The notes below the pieces were generated by a model. It worked only from the letters and a program-made list of their open reading frames with translations. It searched no databases and was not told where the DNA came from. This document shows positions 5,623-14,941 of a DNA stretch of 15,153 nucleotides, piece after piece (within the stretch, counting starts at the first letter, position 1; every line of letters begins with the position of its first letter). The position numbers were made by a program, and so were the translations under genes. Source of the DNA: a virus; the UHGV virus genome UHGV-0197611, one strand, 5' to 3'.

Positions 5623-6792
5623 CTAGCCAGCTTTCATTTCCAGAATTTTGATGGCGTTTGAATCCACCACACCACCGCCCAGATATTTATCCGTGTGGAC
5701 CTTGTAGAATCCGGGTTCAGTAATGTTGTCCGGTCGGGTGCGAATCCCTGTTACATGATCAACGATGAAATAACCACGACTGAAATCGCCAACCGCTAGC
5801 GGTGCTTTTCCTGCGCCGATGTCCGGCATGGACTCCAGGCAGTAAACAGGACGACCAAGCAACATATCCGGCGCACCTTCTTTAAGGCTGTCGCGCCAGA
5901 TATAATCGCCGTTCTCATTTTTCAGCTTCTGTAGTGTCCCTGCCGTGCCCGAGTTCATCACCCAGACGGCATTTTTGCGGTATTTCGCTTTCAGCTTGTA
6001 GAGAATGTCGATCAGTTCGTCCGCTGTAATGGCGGTTCCACTTGCCGCTACCATTTTTTCAATGGTGCCAAAAGCGCGGGTTTTGTCACTGGTCGCCGCA
6101 CGGGTGTAAGCCATGAAGCCTTTCGGCTTGCCGTTACCGTTGCCATTAACAAAATCATCCTCTTCGGTGCTGGCGAACGTGTCGGCAATTTCGGAGGATA
6201 ACCAGCCCAGAATATCCACCTCTGAAAAATCTAGGATTTCCTGCGTGGTTTTCGGGTAGGCGTAGATCGGGTTCAGCTTGATGGTTACGCGTTCAATTTT
6301 CGGGGTGTTGGTTTCACTGCGTGCGCTGCCTTCTGTGCCTCGTCCTACAGTTGCGCCGCCAGTGGAAACCAGTTTCTGAAACTCATTTGATTTTGCAGTC
6401 TTCACGGTCGCGATCACGCGCATAACACTGTCATCCTGTAGCTGGCGCATGACTTCGCGATCAAGCTCAGGAATTACGGTATATCCGCCATCCCTGCCGC
6501 TGTCAGTGCTGGTGGACAGAGATCGCACATCTCCGGTTACGATGTAGTTACGCAATTCATCAGATGATACTTTCTGGATGCCCGTTCCTGGCTTGCTGCG
6601 TTCTTCATCAGCCACAGACTCGAGGCGGGAAATGTCTGTATCGAGGGAATCAGCTTTTGCACGCAGTTCATCAAACTGTTTGCCCTCGTCATCGTTCAGG
6701 CTGCGGTTTTCACTGTCGGCTTTTTCCAGCAGGGATCGCATCTGGTTTTTCAGGGCGTTTTTTTGCTGGCGGAGCTCGATTAATTTCTTCAT
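5623..6792 (-). CDS. Major capsid protein (HK97 fold) with N-terminal delta/scaffolding-like coiled-coil domain
   Basis: 389 aa. The N-terminal ~100 residues are charged and coiled-coil-like (MKKLIELRQQKNALKNQMRSLLEKAD...) and are followed by a capsid body. ATG at 6792-6790. Gene order capsid-protease-portal. Confidence 0.9.
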   Translation of the reverse strand: MKKLIELRQQKNALKNQMRSLLEKADSENRSLNDDEGKQFDELRAKADSLDTDISRLESVADEERSKPGTGIQKVSSDELRNYIVTGDVRSLSTSTDSGRDGGYTVIPELDREVMRQLQDDSVMRVIATVKTAKSNEFQKLVSTGGATVGRGTEGSARSETNTPKIERVTIKLNPIYAYPKTTQEILDFSEVDILGWLSSEIADTFASTEEDDFVNGNGNGKPKGFMAYTRAATSDKTRAFGTIEKMVAASGTAITADELIDILYKLKAKYRKNAVWVMNSGTAGTLQKLKNENGDYIWRDSLKEGAPDMLLGRPVYCLESMPDIGAGKAPLAVGDFSRGYFIVDHVTGIRTRPDNITEPGFYKVHTDKYLGGGVVDSNAIKILEMKAG

Positions 6793-7039
6793 GAAGGTTT
6801 TCTCGTATTGGTTAAGATTCAGGACGTGAAACCAACACGGAGGGAGCGCCGCCCGACACTCTCGGCATCTCGCAGATCAACCCGGCATCGCGCAGGGGAT
6901 CGGACGGCAACAGTGGCGGCTCACGTCTGAGTGCCACTATTTAAGATATGGATCAAAAAATTGATGTAAATAAGGTATTTTTGTTACGAACAGTCTTGAA
7001 TGTTAACACACAAATAATTTACAAAAATGCTGATAAACT

Positions 7040-7786
7040 ATGGAGATTCAAGTGACAAAAGAAATTCTTGCTGTTCCTGGGATGCGACCATCCCCATTGT
7101 TCAAAAGGACTTATAAATTAGTTCGGGAGATTGACGAAAGATTAACCAAACTGATTCATAGATGGCGATTTTTCAATGCAGGCCCCCCCATGAAAGTTAC
7201 TGCATATGATGGAACAGAAATATGCTATCAAGGTTTGGCATTTAAAGGTACTCCCGTTCAAATTTTTTGGAATGGTTTTATCGATCCTTACATTGAAAAT
7301 AACTCAGAAATTGTTTTAGAGCAGACCTCCGCGTTAGCAATTGAATGTCAATTCTCAATAGAGGAGTCAATCGAGGAGGCTAAATTACTATTACTTGTGA
7401 TGATTCGCAGGCTTTACTATGAAATGGCCGAAACAGATAAAATATTAAGAGGTGATGGGTTTTCCTTCCCAGAAAAAAAAGACGTTAGTGGTTATATTGA
7501 AAGTATCTCTCAAAAAATCATAGAACATGCTGAAATTGAAAAGCTAAAAAAAACGCATCCAAAACAAAACATATTCAACATAGCTACTGTAAATAGCCAA
7601 TACGTACAACTTGGTACAAATAACAATATTAATATACAAGAGCTCTCTGAGTTCTTCTCAAAAATTGCATCAACTGGTGAAAAAGAAATTATTACTCTCT
7701 CAAAAAACCTTCTTAAGAAGGCCTACTCAAAAAACTTACTGAGTAAAGAAAACTATGAAGCTCTAATATCAAACCTTAACACATAG
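7040..7786 (+). CDS. Hypothetical protein (248 aa), first gene of AT-rich plus-strand cassette
   Basis: Long ORF in a markedly AT-rich segment on the opposite strand to all flanking modules. Its C-terminal region (FNIATVNSQYVQLGTNNNINI...KNLLKK) is paralogous to the C-terminus of the next gene. No strong SD upstream. Confidence 0.72.
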   Translation: MEIQVTKEILAVPGMRPSPLFKRTYKLVREIDERLTKLIHRWRFFNAGPPMKVTAYDGTEICYQGLAFKGTPVQIFWNGFIDPYIENNSEIVLEQTSALAIECQFSIEESIEEAKLLLLVMIRRLYYEMAETDKILRGDGFSFPEKKDVSGYIESISQKIIEHAEIEKLKKTHPKQNIFNIATVNSQYVQLGTNNNINIQELSEFFSKIASTGEKEIITLSKNLLKKAYSKNLLSKENYEALISNLNT

Positions 7787-7845
7787 ACAAAATACACTTT
7801 CAAATCTACTAGTTAAACGCAAAAGCGATCACGAGGAGCAACATA

Positions 7846-8355
7846 ATGGATCTTAACGTCATGGCATATCCAGAAAAATTCACAATCGCAGGAGTTGAAT
7901 ACAAGGGGAAAAGAAACTCAGCTGAAAAAAAAGTGCTAATCCCTTATACTGAAGAACCAGATATTAATATTGGAGATGAAATCACTCAAAAACTAGGGAA
8001 GGGGGAAATAATATTAAAAGTAATTGATATGTCATTTTTACCAGGAGGTACACTCAATGTTGGTACTAATCACCCTCACATGCTTACATTAAAAGTCGAG
8101 AATCTGACTGCTAATGAACATAAACCAAAACAATCTAGCCAAAATACATTTAACATTGGTAACATATCCGGTACACAGGTTCAACTCGGTGAGCATAACA
8201 ATCTTATTGTAAATCTCAGCATAACTGAACTTGTTGAAAAAGTTTCTCAATCACAAGATCCTCAGGCAAAAAATTTGCTTAAGGATTTACTAAATAATAG
8301 TACGGTAGCCAGTCTCGTTGGTGCTGGTGCGTCCGCCTTGTTAACAATGCTTTGA
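7846..8355 (+). CDS. Hypothetical protein (169 aa), second cassette gene; short hydrophobic small-residue C-terminal tail
   Basis: ATG at 7846 preceded by GAGGAG (7833-7838). Shares the module FNIGNISGTQVQLGEHNNLIV...KNLLKDLL with the upstream protein. Ends in TVASLVGAGASALLTML. Followed immediately by a strong hairpin. Confidence 0.8.
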   Translation: MDLNVMAYPEKFTIAGVEYKGKRNSAEKKVLIPYTEEPDINIGDEITQKLGKGEIILKVIDMSFLPGGTLNVGTNHPHMLTLKVENLTANEHKPKQSSQNTFNIGNISGTQVQLGEHNNLIVNLSITELVEKVSQSQDPQAKNLLKDLLNNSTVASLVGAGASALLTML

Positions 8356-8356
8356 G

Positions 8357-8388
8357 TATATGGCCTGGCAAAGAGCCAGGCCATATAA
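8357..8388. terminator. Bidirectional hairpin between convergent genes
   Basis: Perfect 13-bp stem TATATGGCCTGGC / GCCAGGCCATATA with 6-nt loop, 2 nt after the plus-strand stop (8353-8355) and 1 nt before the minus-strand stop (8390-8392). No long T-tract on either side. Confidence 0.55.
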
Positions 8389-8389
8389 T

Positions 8390-8650
8390 TCATTTCTCAC
8401 TCATCCAATTAGGAGGTAGTGGCATTTTTTTCCTTAAAACCTGCAAATGCTCAATCAAAACATTAACCTGCTCTTGATTTGTTGCAAGGATTTCATCTGA
8501 TAGCGTGCTACGAATAAAATCATGATGGTCAATCCACAGTAAACCACCATTTGCAAGGGCCTGACGGTACTGAGTGGTAGGCATTGAAGCAATATCATGA
8601 AGTCCGAATTGATCAAAATAATTGTTTATTTCATGCGTCAGAATCGGCAT
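8390..8650 (-). CDS. Hypothetical protein (86 aa)
   Basis: ATG at 8650-8648 with AGGAAG RBS. AT-rich. Located between the iteron origin and the cassette, convergent with the cassette. A tandem TTTATCTAA x2 (8664-8681) lies in its 5' leader. Confidence 0.6.
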   Translation of the reverse strand: MPILTHEINNYFDQFGLHDIASMPTTQYRQALANGGLLWIDHHDFIRSTLSDEILATNQEQVNVLIEHLQVLRKKMPLPPNWMSEK

Positions 8651-8792: not shown

Positions 8793-9020
8793 CTTCACCT
8801 GTTCACCTTTTGATATTTTATCTTTTAATTCATAAGGTTAAGGGGTGAACAGTTTCACAAAAACTATTCACCAACTGTTCACCACTGTTCACCCTTGAAG
8901 CTCAATAAACAATCAAAAAGGTGAACAGTGAATAGTTTGGTGAACAGTTCATAAATAACTGTTCACCCTATAATATACTGATATAAAAGATATTTATGAC
9001 AGGGTGAACAGTGGTGAACA
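8793..9020. repeat. Iteron array / putative origin of replication (P4 type I-like octamer TGTTCACC)
   Basis: Nine perfect copies of TGTTCACC/GGTGAACA in both orientations (plus strand 8800, 8876, 8886, 8960; complement 8844, 8920, 8939, 9003, 9013), plus degenerate copies (8793, 8865, 8928), interspersed with AT-rich spacers and lying immediately 3' of the replication gene. Confidence 0.8.
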
Positions 9021-9034
9021 GTTATTCCATAAGT

Positions 9035-10852
9035 TTAATTTTTGCTATCGTCATTAGTGACCGATACACATGATGGCATCCAGTCTTCTGATTCCTCCGT
9101 CAGTGTCACGTTTGAACGCAAACCGTGCTTCGTTTTCCGTTTCATATACTCCCTGCCATATTCCGCCATTGCCCCCGGCATATCTTTACCGAAGCGCGTC
9201 AGTGTTACAGGTTTACCAAACCCATGTGCCCTCATATAAGCCAGATAGGCATGATAGAGATATCTGCGCGGGCTGAATGGCACAATTTCAGCATTACCCA
9301 CTAACAGGCCATCACACATTACCGACGCCATGAGATAGCCGCAGAAGTCCACCAGCGAATCCCCCTCTCGCTTTATCGCCAGTGCTTCTTCAGATTTCTG
9401 CTGCTCATATAACAGGCGTCTGGCTTCGTCCTGGTTAGCAAACCGTGTAAGCAGATGGCGAATCACTACCGCCAGCTCACCTTCTATTTTTTCCGCCAGC
9501 ATCGGATCACGTTCGTTCTCCGGTACAACTTCCGAAAAATTGAATATCACCCGACGACGTGAGATCCCCCCGCTGCGGTCACTGAATGACATGGCGTTAT
9601 TGTTAACCGCCAGCACTACTGCCGGAATACGCGTTGAGTAGGGAGCTTTGTGTTTCGGGTCAATTGCCACCTTGTCACCGCCTGTAATGGCCTTAATCCC
9701 TGCCCCATCACCAGCGTAGCGGGTCATATCCGGCATGATAATCAGAGAAAAGCCAACCACTAACGCACGTTCCCTTGCATCTTCCAGCGCCTTCATGCTT
9801 GCTGATACTGTATTAGCCTTACCCGCCAGCATGGTGCAAATCTCCGCCATTACGCTTTTACCGCTTCCACCAGGACCAGTTACCTCAATGAATAACTGCC
9901 AGTCATATCTGTTCGCCAGCACCATGAATAATGCCGCCAGTACACGATCCGCTTTGCGATCATTCTCAGCCACCGAACGGTGCAACCACTTCCAGAAATT
10001 CGGCGCATGTGTTGCCAGCGTTTCCCCCTCTGCTGGTGGGCTGAAAGGTAATTCACTGGCAATTAACAACCAGTCGTTTTTGTTATGCTCCCGAAAATTA
10101 CCTGTTCTGGTATCAAATACCCCGTTACTGAATCCAATCAAGTTACGGGCTGTATTCCCCATTACAGGCAAACTTAACTTCATGGTATCGACCGCTGATT
10201 TAATAGCGTTCTGTGAATAGCTGATCTCCGCATCAATGAAAATCTGCGCCATAGCACGCTGTAACTCTTTATCCTGAACCGGCTCCCATACAACGCCGTT
10301 GTAATGGTGAACAGTGTCAGAGTCAGCATGAATCGCCAGTTCACCACCATAATGTGCCAGGAGAACTTCGCCGCGTTGACTTGCTCCCATCTGGTTAAGC
10401 GCCAGTGATGAAGCGTTATCGTCTTTTACCCGCTCTTTTTTCTTTACAGGCAGTTCAACAACCTTTTTCTTTTCCGCCAGCTCTCCCCGCTCACGCTCCA
10501 GATATTCGCGCCAGTTCTCCCGTTTCTGGCTGTGCATTCCTTCAGGGTAATAATCAGCATCCCTGACACCTGCCGCTGCCAGTTTCTGCCCGATGGTATT
10601 AACAAGTCCCGGACGCAATAACCCCGCCTGATAGAGACGCACACGATAGCGTCCGTCTGGTACGATTTGCAGGTTGTCCAGTTCGGCAAGTTGTTGCTCT
10701 CCAAGCCAGACAGGTGGCACGTTATCGCCAGCCAGTCGCCCGTCCTGTTCCTGCCACTGCTTCGCATGTGCCCACGCATCACTACCCGCAAAAATGATGA
10801 CTTCCGTCATTTTGTCACGCGGTTGGTGTTTTAAATTTGGCGCTTTTTTCAT
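9035..10852 (-). CDS. Replication protein, P4-family primase C-terminal (D5_N-like) + SF3 helicase (alpha-like)
   Basis: 605 aa from ATG 10852-10850, which overlaps the upstream gene's stop (ATGA). The track start is an upstream GTG. Walker A GPGGSGKS and Walker B-like SLIIMPD. Iterons lie directly downstream. Confidence 0.88.
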   Translation of the reverse strand: MKKAPNLKHQPRDKMTEVIIFAGSDAWAHAKQWQEQDGRLAGDNVPPVWLGEQQLAELDNLQIVPDGRYRVRLYQAGLLRPGLVNTIGQKLAAAGVRDADYYPEGMHSQKRENWREYLERERGELAEKKKVVELPVKKKERVKDDNASSLALNQMGASQRGEVLLAHYGGELAIHADSDTVHHYNGVVWEPVQDKELQRAMAQIFIDAEISYSQNAIKSAVDTMKLSLPVMGNTARNLIGFSNGVFDTRTGNFREHNKNDWLLIASELPFSPPAEGETLATHAPNFWKWLHRSVAENDRKADRVLAALFMVLANRYDWQLFIEVTGPGGSGKSVMAEICTMLAGKANTVSASMKALEDARERALVVGFSLIIMPDMTRYAGDGAGIKAITGGDKVAIDPKHKAPYSTRIPAVVLAVNNNAMSFSDRSGGISRRRVIFNFSEVVPENERDPMLAEKIEGELAVVIRHLLTRFANQDEARRLLYEQQKSEEALAIKREGDSLVDFCGYLMASVMCDGLLVGNAEIVPFSPRRYLYHAYLAYMRAHGFGKPVTLTRFGKDMPGAMAEYGREYMKRKTKHGLRSNVTLTEESEDWMPSCVSVTNDDSKN

Positions 10853-11148
10853 TTCTGCTCTCTCCACGCGGCAATCATGTTTTTCAGTTCCTGTAGTTTT
10901 TTATCCACATCCACACGTGACACATGGTTATTTCTGGAAGGCGGGATTTCCCGCCCGAATCTGCAAATAAAGATCTCCACGTTCAGCGAGCTATGAAATG
11001 AATAGCCATCACGAATAAAGTACACACGGTCAAACATTATCGATTTTACTGTTACTCTGTTGCCGTTCTTATCCCGATAAATAGCGCCGGGGATAATTTT
11101 GGGATGTGCATAACCGCTGGCAGTCAAGCCAGATAAATACGTTCTCAT
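10849..11148 (-). CDS. Hypothetical protein (99 aa), translationally coupled to the replication gene
   Basis: ATG at 11148-11146. Stop overlaps the primase start. No recognisable motif. Confidence 0.6.
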   Translation of the reverse strand: MRTYLSGLTASGYAHPKIIPGAIYRDKNGNRVTVKSIMFDRVYFIRDGYSFHSSLNVEIFICRFGREIPPSRNNHVSRVDVDKKLQELKNMIAAWREQK

Positions 11149-11864: not shown

Positions 11865-12044
11865 ATGGCAACTGGTGCAAAGAACGCAAAATCACAAATG
11901 ACAACTGTCAGAATCCCACATGAAGTAATGGATGATATTGAGCAACTTAAAGAACCTGGCGAAAGTACCGCTGGTTTTTTAGTTACTGCCGCAAAAGGCG
12001 AGATCAAACGCCGCCAGCGGCGCAAGGCCAAAGAGCAGGAGTAA
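11865..12044 (+). CDS. Small charged protein (59 aa), candidate DNA-binding regulator
   Basis: ATG at 11865 preceded by AGGAG (11853-11857). Product MATGAKNAKSQMTTVRIPHEVMDDIEQLKEPGE...KRRQRRKAKEQE. Transcribed divergently from the replication operon. Confidence 0.5.
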   Translation: MATGAKNAKSQMTTVRIPHEVMDDIEQLKEPGESTAGFLVTAAKGEIKRRQRRKAKEQE

Positions 12045-12705: not shown

Positions 12706-13439
12706 GTTCGCCCTAAGTATTTAGCCCACGTATTCTTATCTGTTGCGGGAAGAAACACCCCTTTCATCGCTGCCGCAGCCTCTAAAACAGCGATCACTTT
12801 AGCAACTGGAGCAGTTCCAATATCTATATCATCCATTTCTGGAATTAGTTTGATTAATGCAGGGATCAACTCAGCTTTCTTCGCAAGAGTTTTTGGCGAT
12901 TCTCCCATTTTTCTTCCAGGCATGGTTCCAACATCTTTGATATGCTCCAAATCCTTAGCCATTACACATAAAAACCTTCTGTCGATCTCAATAGCCCCAT
13001 CACTCATAATTTGACATTCCCAGTTTTCTGATTCAGGACGAGTTGAAAAAAAAGATGATACTATCCTTGCATCATTGCCAATAAATTCAAGTTCAGAAAA
13101 ACTTTCCCGATTTAGATAGAAGAAACCGCAAAAATTCTTTGCAAGATAAGAAGCCACACCAAAATAATTTACCCATTCAAAATCGCTACCAACAGGCTTC
13201 ATCCCTGTAATTACCCAGCGATCCCCTTGCAACATCCCTCCAGAATCAACATCAATATTTTCAACTAATGATTTTGGTATAACTAGCGATTTACATGGAT
13301 GACAGTTTGGAAAATAAACAGAAATATTCAAAGCACCTATAGCAGCAAAATGATATATATCATTAAGCGTACATCCCAGCTTCTTTGCTGCTTCAGGCAA
13401 TGGATAATATATACGCTCAGGGATGCTTATCTTTTTCAT
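12702..13439 (-). CDS. Hypothetical protein (245 aa) with N-terminal HTH-like segment; between integrase and alpA
   Basis: ATG at 13439-13437 overlaps the integrase stop (ATGA). N-terminus PEAAKKLGCTLNDIYHFAAIGAL looks like a helix-turn-helix. More AT-rich than int and alpA by eye. Confidence 0.75.
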   Translation of the reverse strand: MKKISIPERIYYPLPEAAKKLGCTLNDIYHFAAIGALNISVYFPNCHPCKSLVIPKSLVENIDVDSGGMLQGDRWVITGMKPVGSDFEWVNYFGVASYLAKNFCGFFYLNRESFSELEFIGNDARIVSSFFSTRPESENWECQIMSDGAIEIDRRFLCVMAKDLEHIKDVGTMPGRKMGESPKTLAKKAELIPALIKLIPEMDDIDIGTAPVAKVIAVLEAAAAMKGVFLPATDKNTWAKYLGRT

Positions 13440-14659
13440 TTCGCTACCTTCAATATTTTTACATTTGAATACTGACCAGAAATAACCTCAAGCCGTTCCA
13501 TCCATTTATTTAGAGCGTCTAGTTTTTCTGGTAAGTACTGGCTACGATTGTATATGGCCATTACACCACCTAATGTGTGACCGAGAAGCTGTTCAACAAC
13601 ATGTGGTGCAATCCCCATGTTATTTAGTGTGGTAGCAAACGTCCTGCGCAGGTCGTGAAGTGTCCACGATTCAATATGCCCCAGACGCTTATATATCATC
13701 CTCCCCCATTGGCTGACAGCTTCTGGTTTCTTTATTTCACCCAACAAAAGACCTGAGTTTTTGTGTTGCTCTATAAGCTGTTGGATGAATGGGCGTATTA
13801 CCACTGGAATAGGGCGCAATATCTTCTCTCCGCCTTTGCTGTGTTCTTTAGGCACTGTCCAGATCCAATCCTTTAAATCCCACTCTGTAATACGTGACAA
13901 CCGAAGCTCCTGGGTTCGACATCCAAACACCACCAATAGACGCAACAACGATGAATAGTATGGTTTAAATTTCTTACCTGAACATTCCTGCCAAATATCT
14001 GCTAACTCTTGACTGCTGTGTTCCCTATCGCGCTTATTCTGTTTTCTACCAACATCATCGATAGTCAGGTCATCCAGAGCATTGCTAACCGCATAACGAT
14101 GTACGCGGCAAAACTTCAGAGCCTGCTTACACATCTGCAGCAAATAACCAGCTGCCACTGGAGCGTCATTCCTTACTCTAGCGAAACACTCCAGCCAATG
14201 CCGGGTTTCGCACATTGATAACGGATAATCACCTATATAGGGGAAAATATGCTTCCTCAGTTGCTCAATGTGTTTATCAACATTCGTGCGCTTGTAAACG
14301 GCGTATTCTCTGATCCAGTAATCCAGAGCCTCTTTTACCGTCACTGGTTTGAGTGTTTCATGTATTGCCACATTTAACCGATGCTTTGGATTTTTACCTT
14401 CAGCAAGCCATGCTCGACACTGTTCACGTTTCTCGCGCGCAGCTTTCAGAGAAAGATCCGGGTAGTTTCCAAGCTTAACACGCTGTGAATACGATTCACG
14501 CCCACCAATCCGGAAAGAGAAATACCAAGTAAGAACGCCAATTTTTGACACCTTGATACTCAATCCATCACCGTCAGCATAAAATCTATCTCTATCGATT
14601 TCCCTCCCCAGCATCTTACGCAACGATGTATCGCTTAATTTGTTCGTTCCTCCAGCCAT
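13436..14659 (-). CDS. int: Tyrosine site-specific integrase (P4-like)
   Basis: 407 aa from ATG 14659-14657 (AAGG upstream); the track start is an upstream alternative codon. C-terminal catalytic signature HDLRRTFAT...LLGHTLGGVMAIYNRSQY and a typical N-terminal arm-binding-like region. Confidence 0.92.
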   Translation of the reverse strand: MAGGTNKLSDTSLRKMLGREIDRDRFYADGDGLSIKVSKIGVLTWYFSFRIGGRESYSQRVKLGNYPDLSLKAAREKREQCRAWLAEGKNPKHRLNVAIHETLKPVTVKEALDYWIREYAVYKRTNVDKHIEQLRKHIFPYIGDYPLSMCETRHWLECFARVRNDAPVAAGYLLQMCKQALKFCRVHRYAVSNALDDLTIDDVGRKQNKRDREHSSQELADIWQECSGKKFKPYYSSLLRLLVVFGCRTQELRLSRITEWDLKDWIWTVPKEHSKGGEKILRPIPVVIRPFIQQLIEQHKNSGLLLGEIKKPEAVSQWGRMIYKRLGHIESWTLHDLRRTFATTLNNMGIAPHVVEQLLGHTLGGVMAIYNRSQYLPEKLDALNKWMERLEVISGQYSNVKILKVAK

Positions 14660-14685
14660 AGAAAACCTTAATTCATATTGAAAAC

Positions 14686-14707
14686 TGACTGCACCACTGA
14701 CTGCACA
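14686..14707. repeat. Int-proximal direct repeat copy 1: TGACTGCAC-C-ACTGACTGCAC-A (two tandem TGACTGCAC units)
   Basis: Identical 22-mer recurs at 14920-14941. Copy 1 lies 27 bp upstream of the int start codon. Confidence 0.75.
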
Positions 14708-14875
14708 CTTTAATATTACCCTATGAACAGAAATGAACAAAGGTAAACTAAAGAAACAACATTAATCATTTTATTCAATAAGTTATATAAACACTAACGA
14801 ACCATGACAAACTGTAAGAAACATAGGTTTTGATAATACGGCATGAACTAATTCAGGTTAGCTAAATGCTTGATT

Positions 14876-14912: not shown

Positions 14913-14919
14913 ATTAAAA

Positions 14920-14941
14920 TGACTGCACCACTGACTGCACA
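14920..14941. repeat. Int-proximal direct repeat copy 2 (identical 22-mer)
   Basis: Read directly. 234 bp from copy 1, on the far side of the hairpin. Confidence 0.75.

Follow-up and report, generated by a model that had tools for sequence, protein, structure and literature searches.

The subject of this study is a cassette of two plus-strand genes, gpA and gpB, at positions 7040 to 8355 of the virus genome UHGV-0197611. The window is the whole stretch of 15,153 nt that was analysed, and by its gene content the island it holds is a capsid-forming satellite of E. coli of the phage-inducible chromosomal island (PICI) type. A first-pass annotation of the window had reported the two open reading frames (ORFs), which are present as claimed (Table 1), and a base composition richer in AT than the flanks. 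The GC content is indeed 0.31–0.37 over 7000–8400 and about 0.5 on either side (0.49–0.57 in the capsid/terminase module, with ~52% for the capsid module, and 0.48–0.52 in the primase gene), and the AT-rich stretch extends to ~9000, across orf86 and a set of iteron-like repeats. Both genes lie on the plus strand of a minus-strand element, although the wording that they stand alone there was slightly overstated, as a YlcI/YnfO-like gene at ~11865–12044 is also on the plus strand.

The two genes are 59 nt apart in one transcription unit with gpA upstream. The gpA start is most probably the GTG at 7052 (244 aa, MTKEILAV...), because a GGAG lies 6 nt upstream, the RefSeq/PGAP call is the same and the N-termini of the homologs agree with it. 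Neither product carries an enzymatic domain detectable in Pfam, PADLOC or NCBIfam, in line with the earlier reading. Pfam gave no family at E≤1 for gpA or gpB, and in Pfam, PADLOC, NCBIfam and PHROGs together gpA, gpB and orf86 matched only PHROGs of unknown function.

The two products share a C-terminal module. BLASTP aligns gpA 161–235 with gpB 84–159 at E=9e-7, and the gpA C-terminus and the full-length gpB both match phrog_5789. The paralogy proposed at first is thus true of the C-terminal part by BLASTP and by the alignment profile A4, and the module, real as it is, measures ~70 aa in the homolog alignment and A4, not the ~50 first estimated. The cassette also behaves as accessory rather than core, as had been supposed, since the pair occurs in 20 of 5,426 complete E. 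coli genomes and close sister islands have the slot empty. We hold it as almost certain that the cassette is accessory cargo and that its shared module is paralogous.

The N/Q/G-rich part of the module has the consensus T-F-N-I-G-S-x-S-G-x-x-V-Q-x-G-x-x-N and is followed by a helical part, I-x-E-L-V-E-K-V-A-K-S-x-D-x-E-A-K-S-x-L-K-x-L-L. In the AlphaFold2 models of the two proteins, both computed as monomers, a folded head is followed by the N/Q/G stretch with a predicted local distance difference test score (pLDDT) of <50 and by the helical C-terminal part with 64–85.

How widely the module occurs was examined by an exhaustive HMMER search of 1.84 billion (1.84e9) representatives with the module-only profile A4 at E≤1e-3, a word-indexed search with the module profile having given fragments only. 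It returned 182 proteins, two of them HEAT-repeat false positives, and the rest have the module at the C-terminus and are mostly 150–180 aa long. Their heads are of the gpB type in about half, of the gpA type, or of at least 15 other unrelated small domains. Because one module is fused to so many unrelated N-domains, this is the pattern of what may be read as a constant effector or assembly unit. A terminal hydrophobic segment is found in 77% of 119 family members. One protein of 317 aa (P0295) has two tandem units of a small head plus the module.

RHIM amyloids control animal necroptosis. When 118 members of the family were scanned against Pfam, RHIM (PF12721) was by far the commonest match, reached by 28 of them at E≤0.1 with a best value of 5.3e-7, and HET-S gave one weak match. 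The member P0252 scores 25.2 bits against the RHIM gathering cut-off of 20, exactly over the first 18 residues of the module. Its motif, compared with 177,635 PDB sequences, matches only the human RIPK3 RHIM fibrils (E ~0.05), with PVININNSQGIQIGDNNVQ aligned to PLVNIYNCSGVQVGDNNYL.

The signature G-φ-Q-φ-G, common to RHIM, PP and BASS3 (10.1101/2020.01.06.895854), BASS standing for bacterial amyloid signalling sequence, is present in 17 of the 118 members, two of them with a bona fide gpB-type head, and φ-Q-φ-G only in 85. The family motif consists of N 19.4, I 13.4, Q 11.7, G 10.5 and V 8.1%, with K 1.1, P 0.5 and L 2.0% and with R depleted, and this matches the BASS bias of enriched N, Q, G, V and I and depleted K, P and L (10.1101/2020.01.06.895854). 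As in the metazoan RHIMs of RIPK1, RIPK3, ZBP1 and TRIF, which PF12721 describes and which the above threshold-exceeding and fibril-aligned members resemble, a core of (I/V)-Q-(I/V/L)-G is flanked by N-I-x-N and N-N. The module is therefore very probably of the RHIM class at the family level, as judged by these profile and composition matches, a point absent from the first-pass annotation.

The gpB protein consists of a β-barrel N-domain (aa 1–95), the RHIM-like motif, three helices and a hydrophobic tail. The barrel head is modelled at a pLDDT of ~80 over aa 10–86 and the motif at <50. All 93 homologs compared have the motif residues I104, Q113, G115 and N118. The hydrophobic tail rich in small residues, pointed out from the start, is real and conserved as NSTVAS-x-IGAGASALLGLL, with a Kyte-Doolittle mean of 1.85 over 16 residues, and the consensus of the extreme C-terminus is N-S-T-V-A-S-x-I-G-A-G-A-S-A-L-L-G-L-L.

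Within the head, aa 73–82 (8062–8091) read G-T-x-H-P-H-M-L-T-L almost invariantly across phyla, in which we recognised no known motif. With Y8-P9, D61 and N86, this stretch may form a conserved site of the barrel for binding a ligand or partner. An assignment of the head as PilZ was considered but is not supported, since the Pfam PilZ domain with its RxxxR and D/NxSxxG cyclic di-GMP motifs is not found in it. Foldseek of gpB against BFVD gave no convincing match.

The gpB family comprises 181 matches of ~168 aa, which are 50–65% identical across the Gammaproteobacteria. It extends to assemblies of Campylobacterota, Kiritimatiellales, Hyphomicrobiales and Thermodesulfobacteriota, mostly metagenome-assembled genomes. 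Most copies are in non-phage contexts, and one lies beside Abi_C, VspR and helicase genes.

In marine Gammaproteobacteria, solo gpB stands among small co-oriented genes split by repeats (L049 1–16507, L001 7000–15500). The repeats start ...TAACAAGG... right after stop codons and finish ...GTTA(A/T)G; next to the array is a gene for a tyrosine recombinase. Judged by eye, the arrays resemble the cassette arrays of chromosomal integrons, attC sites included. The L049 array also has a group II intron reverse transcriptase (RVT_1 and GIIM).

The gpA protein is built of a helical N-domain (aa 1–172), the RHIM-like motif and a hydrophilic helical C-terminus. Its model has helices at 21–168 and 199–247 with a pLDDT of <50 at 173–196. 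N180, G192 and N195 are invariant in its homologs. Only 25 relatives were found, and those close to gpA (≥68% identity) always have gpB directly after them, whereas gpB is often solo. The distant gpA-type proteins of three loci (L044, L059, L083) are solo and carry a complete gpB-like hydrophobic tail. The paired gpA ends instead in a hydrophilic helix, with a Kyte-Doolittle mean of –0.22 versus 1.85 for gpB. On these comparisons of sequence, gpB is the basic and usually self-sufficient unit and the paired gpA is a derivative with the tail lost.

Within pairs the gpA module is the fastest-evolving part, with 31–75% identity versus 63–87% for the gpB module, and among nine distinct pairs VQLG is common to both partners only in the window pair. 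A gpA-type N-domain is fused to TIR in a soil metagenome (L066 40–1278; TIR_2 6.4e-21, SEFIR 3e-16). By eye, other relatives of this N-domain (L061–L076) are joined to transmembrane segments, and one of them (L065) has a C-terminus with an R-x6-H HEPN-like motif.

We propose that gpB is an amyloid-switched membrane-attack effector of abortive infection and that gpA, its tail-less RHIM partner, is a sensor or modulator, a reading to which we give somewhat less than an even chance. A latent membrane-attack effector is proposed because the architecture follows the logic of HET-S, Bell and Bab and because Bab/Agp executes abortive infection in E. coli. In resting gpB the tail would be sheathed by the helices and the motif disordered, and the small conserved barrel head would be the presumed sensor. 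A cue sensed during phage infection would make the motifs stack into a cross-β assembly, which would concentrate and expose the tails for an attack on the inner membrane, and the infection would be aborted. In this scheme the trigger, the assembly into amyloid, the attack on the membrane and the defence against phage are inferred.

gpA would co-assemble with gpB through the common motif and so couple a second, helical head to the assembly. One possibility is a second sensor nucleating gpB, a role that NWD2 has towards HET-S and Agp towards Bab; the other is a brake or decoy by which the assembly is capped. The tail being kept in solo gpA-like proteins and lost in paired gpA supports the proposal. 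Moreover, since gpB travels as a single-gene cassette, it must be harmless until triggered. Indirect support comes from the hotspot context, from an alternative cargo that matches the candidate defence system PDC-M18 and from the TIR fusion of the gpA head.

A variant reverses the sign of the gpA action. There gpB would be intrinsically toxic to the membrane and, in the paired clade, the tail-less motif of gpA would cap or co-aggregate it until gpA is inactivated, in parallel with the RHIM decoys M45 and ICP6, which block RIPK3 and represent an established mechanism (review PMC13506858). That gpA kept the motif and lost the tail, that close relatives of gpA always come with gpB and that gpA precedes gpB in the same transcription unit would all fit a toxin with its brake. 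However, gpB persists stably without gpA, both as a solo integron cassette and in many islands, and therefore needs no antidote. The gpA N-domain, large, conserved and elsewhere fused to TIR, is also a better fit for a sensor or adaptor than for a cap. We consider this variant quite unlikely.

Among the known systems, the nearest to the proposed effector pair are Bab/Agp, with the same logic and unrelated sequence, the BASS3 pairs of Bell and NOD-like receptor (NLR) proteins, with a related motif, and the animal RHIM proteins. Bab/Agp of E. coli, adjacent genes with a common amyloid motif, is experimentally shown to cause abortive infection (10.1101/2024.11.07.622273). As described for ECOR25 with BASS11 (Ibarlosa et al., 10.1101/2024.11.07.622273), it resembles the cassette in being adjacent genes of an E. 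coli mobile element that have a common N/Q/G-rich motif of ~20 aa, in its small partner with a terminal hydrophobic helix for presumed membrane attack beside a partner with a different and larger domain, and in its location in a defence hotspot.

Bab differs from the cassette proteins: it has 109 aa and a Bell-like helical fold, its hydrophobic helix is N-terminal and its motif C-terminal. The cassette has internal motifs in the C-terminal halves, a C-terminal hydrophobic helix, β-barrel and novel helical heads and a gpB that is usually solo. Its motif appears to be RHIM/BASS3-like and not BASS11. The Babybell and TPR-GreA/B-C-PIN composition of Bab/Agp was not found either, as gpA and gpB have no GreA/B, PIN or TPR match in Pfam and differ in size and fold.

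The BASS3 Bell-NLR pairs of Actinobacteria and Cyanobacteria (Dyrka et al. 2020, 10.1101/2020.01.06.895854) share with the cassette the RHIM-related φ-Q-φ-G motif, the composition bias and the gene adjacency. In the window pair ~9 of 22 motif positions are identical by eye, and this ~40% is near the 43–56% reported for cross-seeding pairs (10.1101/2020.01.06.895854). The known pairs combine a Bell effector with a C-terminal motif and an NB-ARC or NACHT NLR with an N-terminal motif and were reported specifically in multicellular bacteria (10.1101/2020.01.06.895854). The cassette has no NLR or Bell, belongs to unicellular Gammaproteobacteria, satellites and integrons and has a helical hydrophobic extension after the motif. 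The layout of the BASS and FASS pairs, with the motif C-terminal in a Bell/HeLo-type, TIR or CHAT effector and N-terminal in an NLR/STAND or other large sensor, is not seen here: the motifs occupy aa 177–199 of 248 and 100–123 of 169 with 45–50 aa to follow, the gpB head is a β-barrel, the two proteins lack NB-ARC, NACHT and TPR, and none of the 182 module matches is of NLR size.

From the metazoan RHIM proteins the cassette differs in having its effector in cis, as the hydrophobic tail, rather than as a downstream MLKL-type protein, and in having no kinase or Zα. The tail-less gpA recalls the RHIM-only modulators and the viral decoys M45 and ICP6. In HET-S/NWD2 of Podospora anserina, amyloid templating exposes a membrane-attacking terminal helix and an adjacent gene provides a partner with the same motif, as in the logic proposed here, but the motif is of the HRAM family, the domain is HeLo, the membrane helix is N-terminal and the partner is an NLR. 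The cassette architecture would then be the HET-S, Bell and Bab logic with the order of the parts reversed. On this comparison we rate the cassette among the putative amyloid-signalling immune modules, related to Bab/Agp and BASS3.

A number of observations weigh against the amyloid-switched effector. The RHIM link of gpA and gpB themselves is transitive, assigned through the homology of the family because the two proteins reach no RHIM threshold of their own, with no Pfam RHIM match at E≤1 and hence none at the gathering cut-off. In the PDB their motifs gave chance matches or none, and no RIPK fibril, and the module profile gave no RHIM and only chance matches to short-chain dehydrogenases (NISSVNG). 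The window motifs contain φ-Q-φ-G as Y-V-Q-L-G in gpA and G-T-Q-V-Q-L-G in gpB with the first G absent or displaced by two residues, and two extra residues precede VQLG (G-x-Q-V-Q-L-G, not G-φ-Q-φ-G), an insertion before the tetrad that metazoan RHIMs lack.

The motif is internal in both proteins, unlike the terminal motif of all described amyloid signalling pairs, and the cassette has no NLR or other partner of the class of signal transduction ATPases with numerous domains (STAND) and no Bell or HeLo domain. PADLOC-DB 2.0 has no family at E≤1 for gpA, gpB or orf86. Motif covariation within the gpA/gpB pairs gave no usable signal in the nine distinct pairs. The gpB tail is short for a transmembrane helix, its 19-residue Kyte-Doolittle maximum of 1.29 being under the usual threshold. 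The N-domain, 50–60% identical across phyla, is conserved to a degree that is unusual if it senses fast-evolving phage proteins.

Phages seldom carry gpB, with homologs in 3 of 50,697 sequenced phage records. In the lambdoid Escherichia phage vB_EcoM-689R6 (L084 4980–5486), a 33%-identical homolog, whose motif is degenerate (DFQAGNDN) and whose tail is weaker, lies directly after holin and Rz and before HNH and TerS, a position that would fit a lysis-related role. This position belongs to an account without amyloid, in which the N/Q/G stretch is an ordinary β-hairpin or linker of a homotypic oligomerisation module and the products are C-tail-anchored inner-membrane proteins of superinfection exclusion or of lysis timing as a holin/antiholin-like accessory. 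The failed direct RHIM tests just given agree with it, as do the mere two 3-residue strands that AlphaFold2 gives in the gpB motif and the hydrophobic segment at the extreme C-terminus, like that of tail-anchored proteins.

Such an account leaves aside the 28 of 118 members that reach Pfam RHIM, the RIPK3 fibrils as the sole PDB match of a member and the BASS-like composition bias. In addition, a tail of only 16 residues is under the transmembrane threshold for an anchor as well, the capsid-forming PICI-type islands have no lysis genes to act with, and the non-phage contexts of most copies have to be explained. We regard it as rather unlikely and retain the amyloid-switched effector as the preferred reading.

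The module architecture points to an amyloid-switched cell-killing defence that would be undescribed. In its widest form, the proposal is of a minimal bacterial RHIM death switch of ~170 aa, made of a sensor head, an RHIM-class motif and a membrane-active tail, which moves among unicellular Proteobacteria by satellites, integron cassettes and prophages and whose effector gpA nucleates or gates in trans. This wider proposal is tentative and, taken whole, we lean against it. With gpA acting in trans, prokaryotes would have their own equivalent of RIPK1/RIPK3 hetero-amyloid signalling or of the viral RHIM decoys.

Until now, descriptions of RHIM-like BASS3 have been limited to Bell-NLR pairs of multicellular bacteria, where a 2026 review still places RHIM-like BASS exclusively, and the only experimentally proven bacterial amyloid defence is Bab/Agp, which uses BASS11. 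Among the papers searched in full text, none besides the Bab/Agp preprint ties RHIM to PICIs, integron cassettes or abortive infection. If the proposal is true, RHIM-type amyloid immunity extends to E. coli and its satellites, and RHIM-type signalling is far more widespread and modular than assumed, with a module that has a built-in membrane tail, sits on 20 or more different small heads and is carried about by satellites, integrons and prophages in Gammaproteobacteria and other groups. It would also open an amyloid switch to study in E. coli with a 170-aa protein, a tractable RHIM model of ~1.5 kb, and would offer a natural sensor-or-decoy pair for dissecting hetero-amyloid specificity. The cargo dock described below would join the known satellite defence hotspots.

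Table 1. Features of the gpA-gpB cassette and of the slot that holds it (window positions)
Feature	Position	Strand	Remarks
Backbone palindrome AGTGGC-N15-GCCACT	6912–6938		Left slot edge; kept in pair, solo and empty islands
Promoter-like site TTTACA-N16-TATCTT	6943–6970	–	From consensus scan; faces the capsid operon
17-mer ACAAATAATTTACAAAA	7010–7026	+	12–25 nt upstream of the cargo start
gpA	7040–7786	+	248 aa from ATG 7040; 244 aa from GTG 7052
gpA RHIM-like motif NIFNIATVNSQYVQLGTNNNINI	7568–7636	+	aa 177–199; aligned to the gpB motif
gpB	7846–8355	+	169 aa; full-length phrog_5789 member
gpB RHIM-like motif NTFNIGNISGTQVQLGEHNNLIVN	8143–8214	+	aa 100–123
gpB hydrophobic small-residue tail STVASLVGAGASALLTML	8299–8352	+	aa 152–169
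Hairpin, perfect 13-bp stem, 5-nt loop	8357–8387		Right slot edge, between convergent gpB and orf86
orf86	8390–8650	–	phrog_1957; backbone gene on the replication side of the slot, outside the cassette

The cassette occupies a slot with fixed edges (Table 1). The palindrome is the final block in common with the empty-slot islands, where megablast homology stops at ~6937, so that the insert proper begins at ~6939. The 17-mer is invariant across the E. coli, Enterobacter, Winslowiella and metagenome loci and is a candidate promoter or operator of the dock. On the opposite edge, the hairpin has –26.6 kcal/mol as RNA (z=–6.3) and is terminator-like. Other genera keep it, Winslowiella (L011) with a compensatory change in the stem. 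Of the bracketing by a promoter region and a hairpin that the first-pass annotation had described, the hairpin was confirmed, but the consensus scan found no plus-strand sigma-70-type promoter in 6793–7039. The hexamers of the minus-strand promoter-like site are kept in related islands, and this site, the palindrome and the 17-mer all recur in several genera.

Homologs of orf86 border the slot in all related islands. Two empty E. coli islands (L007, 5394–5680; L008, 5207–5490) have the 17-mer, directly the GC hairpin and then the orf86 homolog, and in the occupied islands the hairpin is 3′ of the cargo rather than directly 3′ of the 17-mer. As the empty slots retain both, the backbone holds a ready-made promoter-like element and terminator. 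Among the comparable sister islands, the slot is empty in these two and holds gpB alone in a third (L009). A solo gpB of 65% identity is found in 51 of the 5,426 complete E. coli genomes.

To survey the slot contents, IMG/VR was scanned for the 17-mer and the 73 contigs with it beside a homolog of the major capsid protein (MCP) were retained. At least 31 of these are empty, with ≤62 nt to the orf86 homolog, 8 have gpB alone and 3 have gpA and gpB. Another 12 contigs (L092, L108, L109, L115, L133, L159, L163, L173, L174, L179, L182, L197) hold an unrelated protein of 156–168 aa without family, at slot ~+20 to +570. This third cargo has the consensus M..ALF.QQR.Q..H.GKH..EF...Y.YAW..GVYP... and no Pfam or PADLOC match. 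In 2 contigs (L106, L155) there are two genes matching the PADLOC candidate system PDC-M18 at slot +63 to +1620 (A 5.4e-71, B 1.3e-22). Their B protein has several hydrophobic segments.

The contents thus vary and include a candidate defence system, so the earlier idea of a variable hotspot with alternative cargo was correct. The slot is a dedicated promoter–slot–terminator site, and the cassette is one of its optional cargoes. The anti-phage or inter-satellite role that the first-pass annotation had in mind is putative, suggested by context and architecture.

In the Enterobacterales, gpB lies in this same slot beside the capsid operon in at least seven genera, namely E. coli, Enterobacter, Winslowiella, Kluyvera, Pluralibacter, Proteus and Photorhabdus. 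The placement allows for an interference with the helper phage, in which the N-domain of gpB, as a mimic of a stopper or head-tail adaptor of the phage neck, binds the helper portal, connector or tail ends and blocks the helper head-tail joining, so leaving tails for the satellite capsids. Capsid-forming PICIs do rely on hijacked tails (10.1101/2025.02.19.639094). Yet the gene is missing from most related islands, it occurs in integron arrays and in chromosomes without nearby capsid genes, and the RHIM-like motif and the hydrophobic tail would be left unexplained. We regard such interference as very unlikely. That gpB is itself a structural neck protein was likewise set aside, given its absence from most sister islands and its presence in capsid-free contexts.

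The island is an integrated element, which encodes on its minus strand an integrase (13436–14740), an AlpA-type regulator, a primase (9035–10867) and a packaging operon. The operon runs from MCP (5623–6792) through the prohead protease, portal, connector, HNH and small terminase (TerS) genes to that of the large terminase (TerL, 767–2428). No tail or lysis genes are among the window ORFs. E. coli MS6198 has an identical copy of the element, flanked by fis and yhdJ, with the same RefSeq annotation. This gene set, seen in the ORFs, in the RefSeq annotation and by Pfam on a sister island (L003), is the usual description of capsid-forming PICIs. We named the island accordingly because it fits the description in 10.1101/2025.02.19.639094.

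Several minor features of the island were noted. At 8799–9026, in the AT-rich interval that separates orf86 from the primase gene, the 10-mer GGTGAACAGT / ACTGTTCACC occurs at least eight times, with copies in each orientation that look like iterons of the satellite replication origin. A 26-nt direct repeat, AAA[CA]TGACTGCACCACTGACTGCACA, with an internal tandem CTGACTGCAC unit is found at 14682–14707 and 14916–14941 (96% identical). One copy falls in the 5′-terminal part of the integrase ORF, the other lies past it, and they may belong to att or be arm-type sites of the integrase. A search of the window for att-type direct repeats around the island gave none, and there is no Rfam match and no tRNA gene.

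The YlcI/YnfO-family gene is divergent from an Icd-like cell-division inhibitor gene, and this region is the regulatory switch region of the element. Two Klebsiella pneumoniae ‘plasmids’, CP018459.1 (16,971 bp) and NZ_CP069874.1 (15,995 bp), encode a gpB homolog of 57% identity. Since their size of 16–17 kb equals that of such islands, these plasmid records may in fact represent satellites in circular or excised form.

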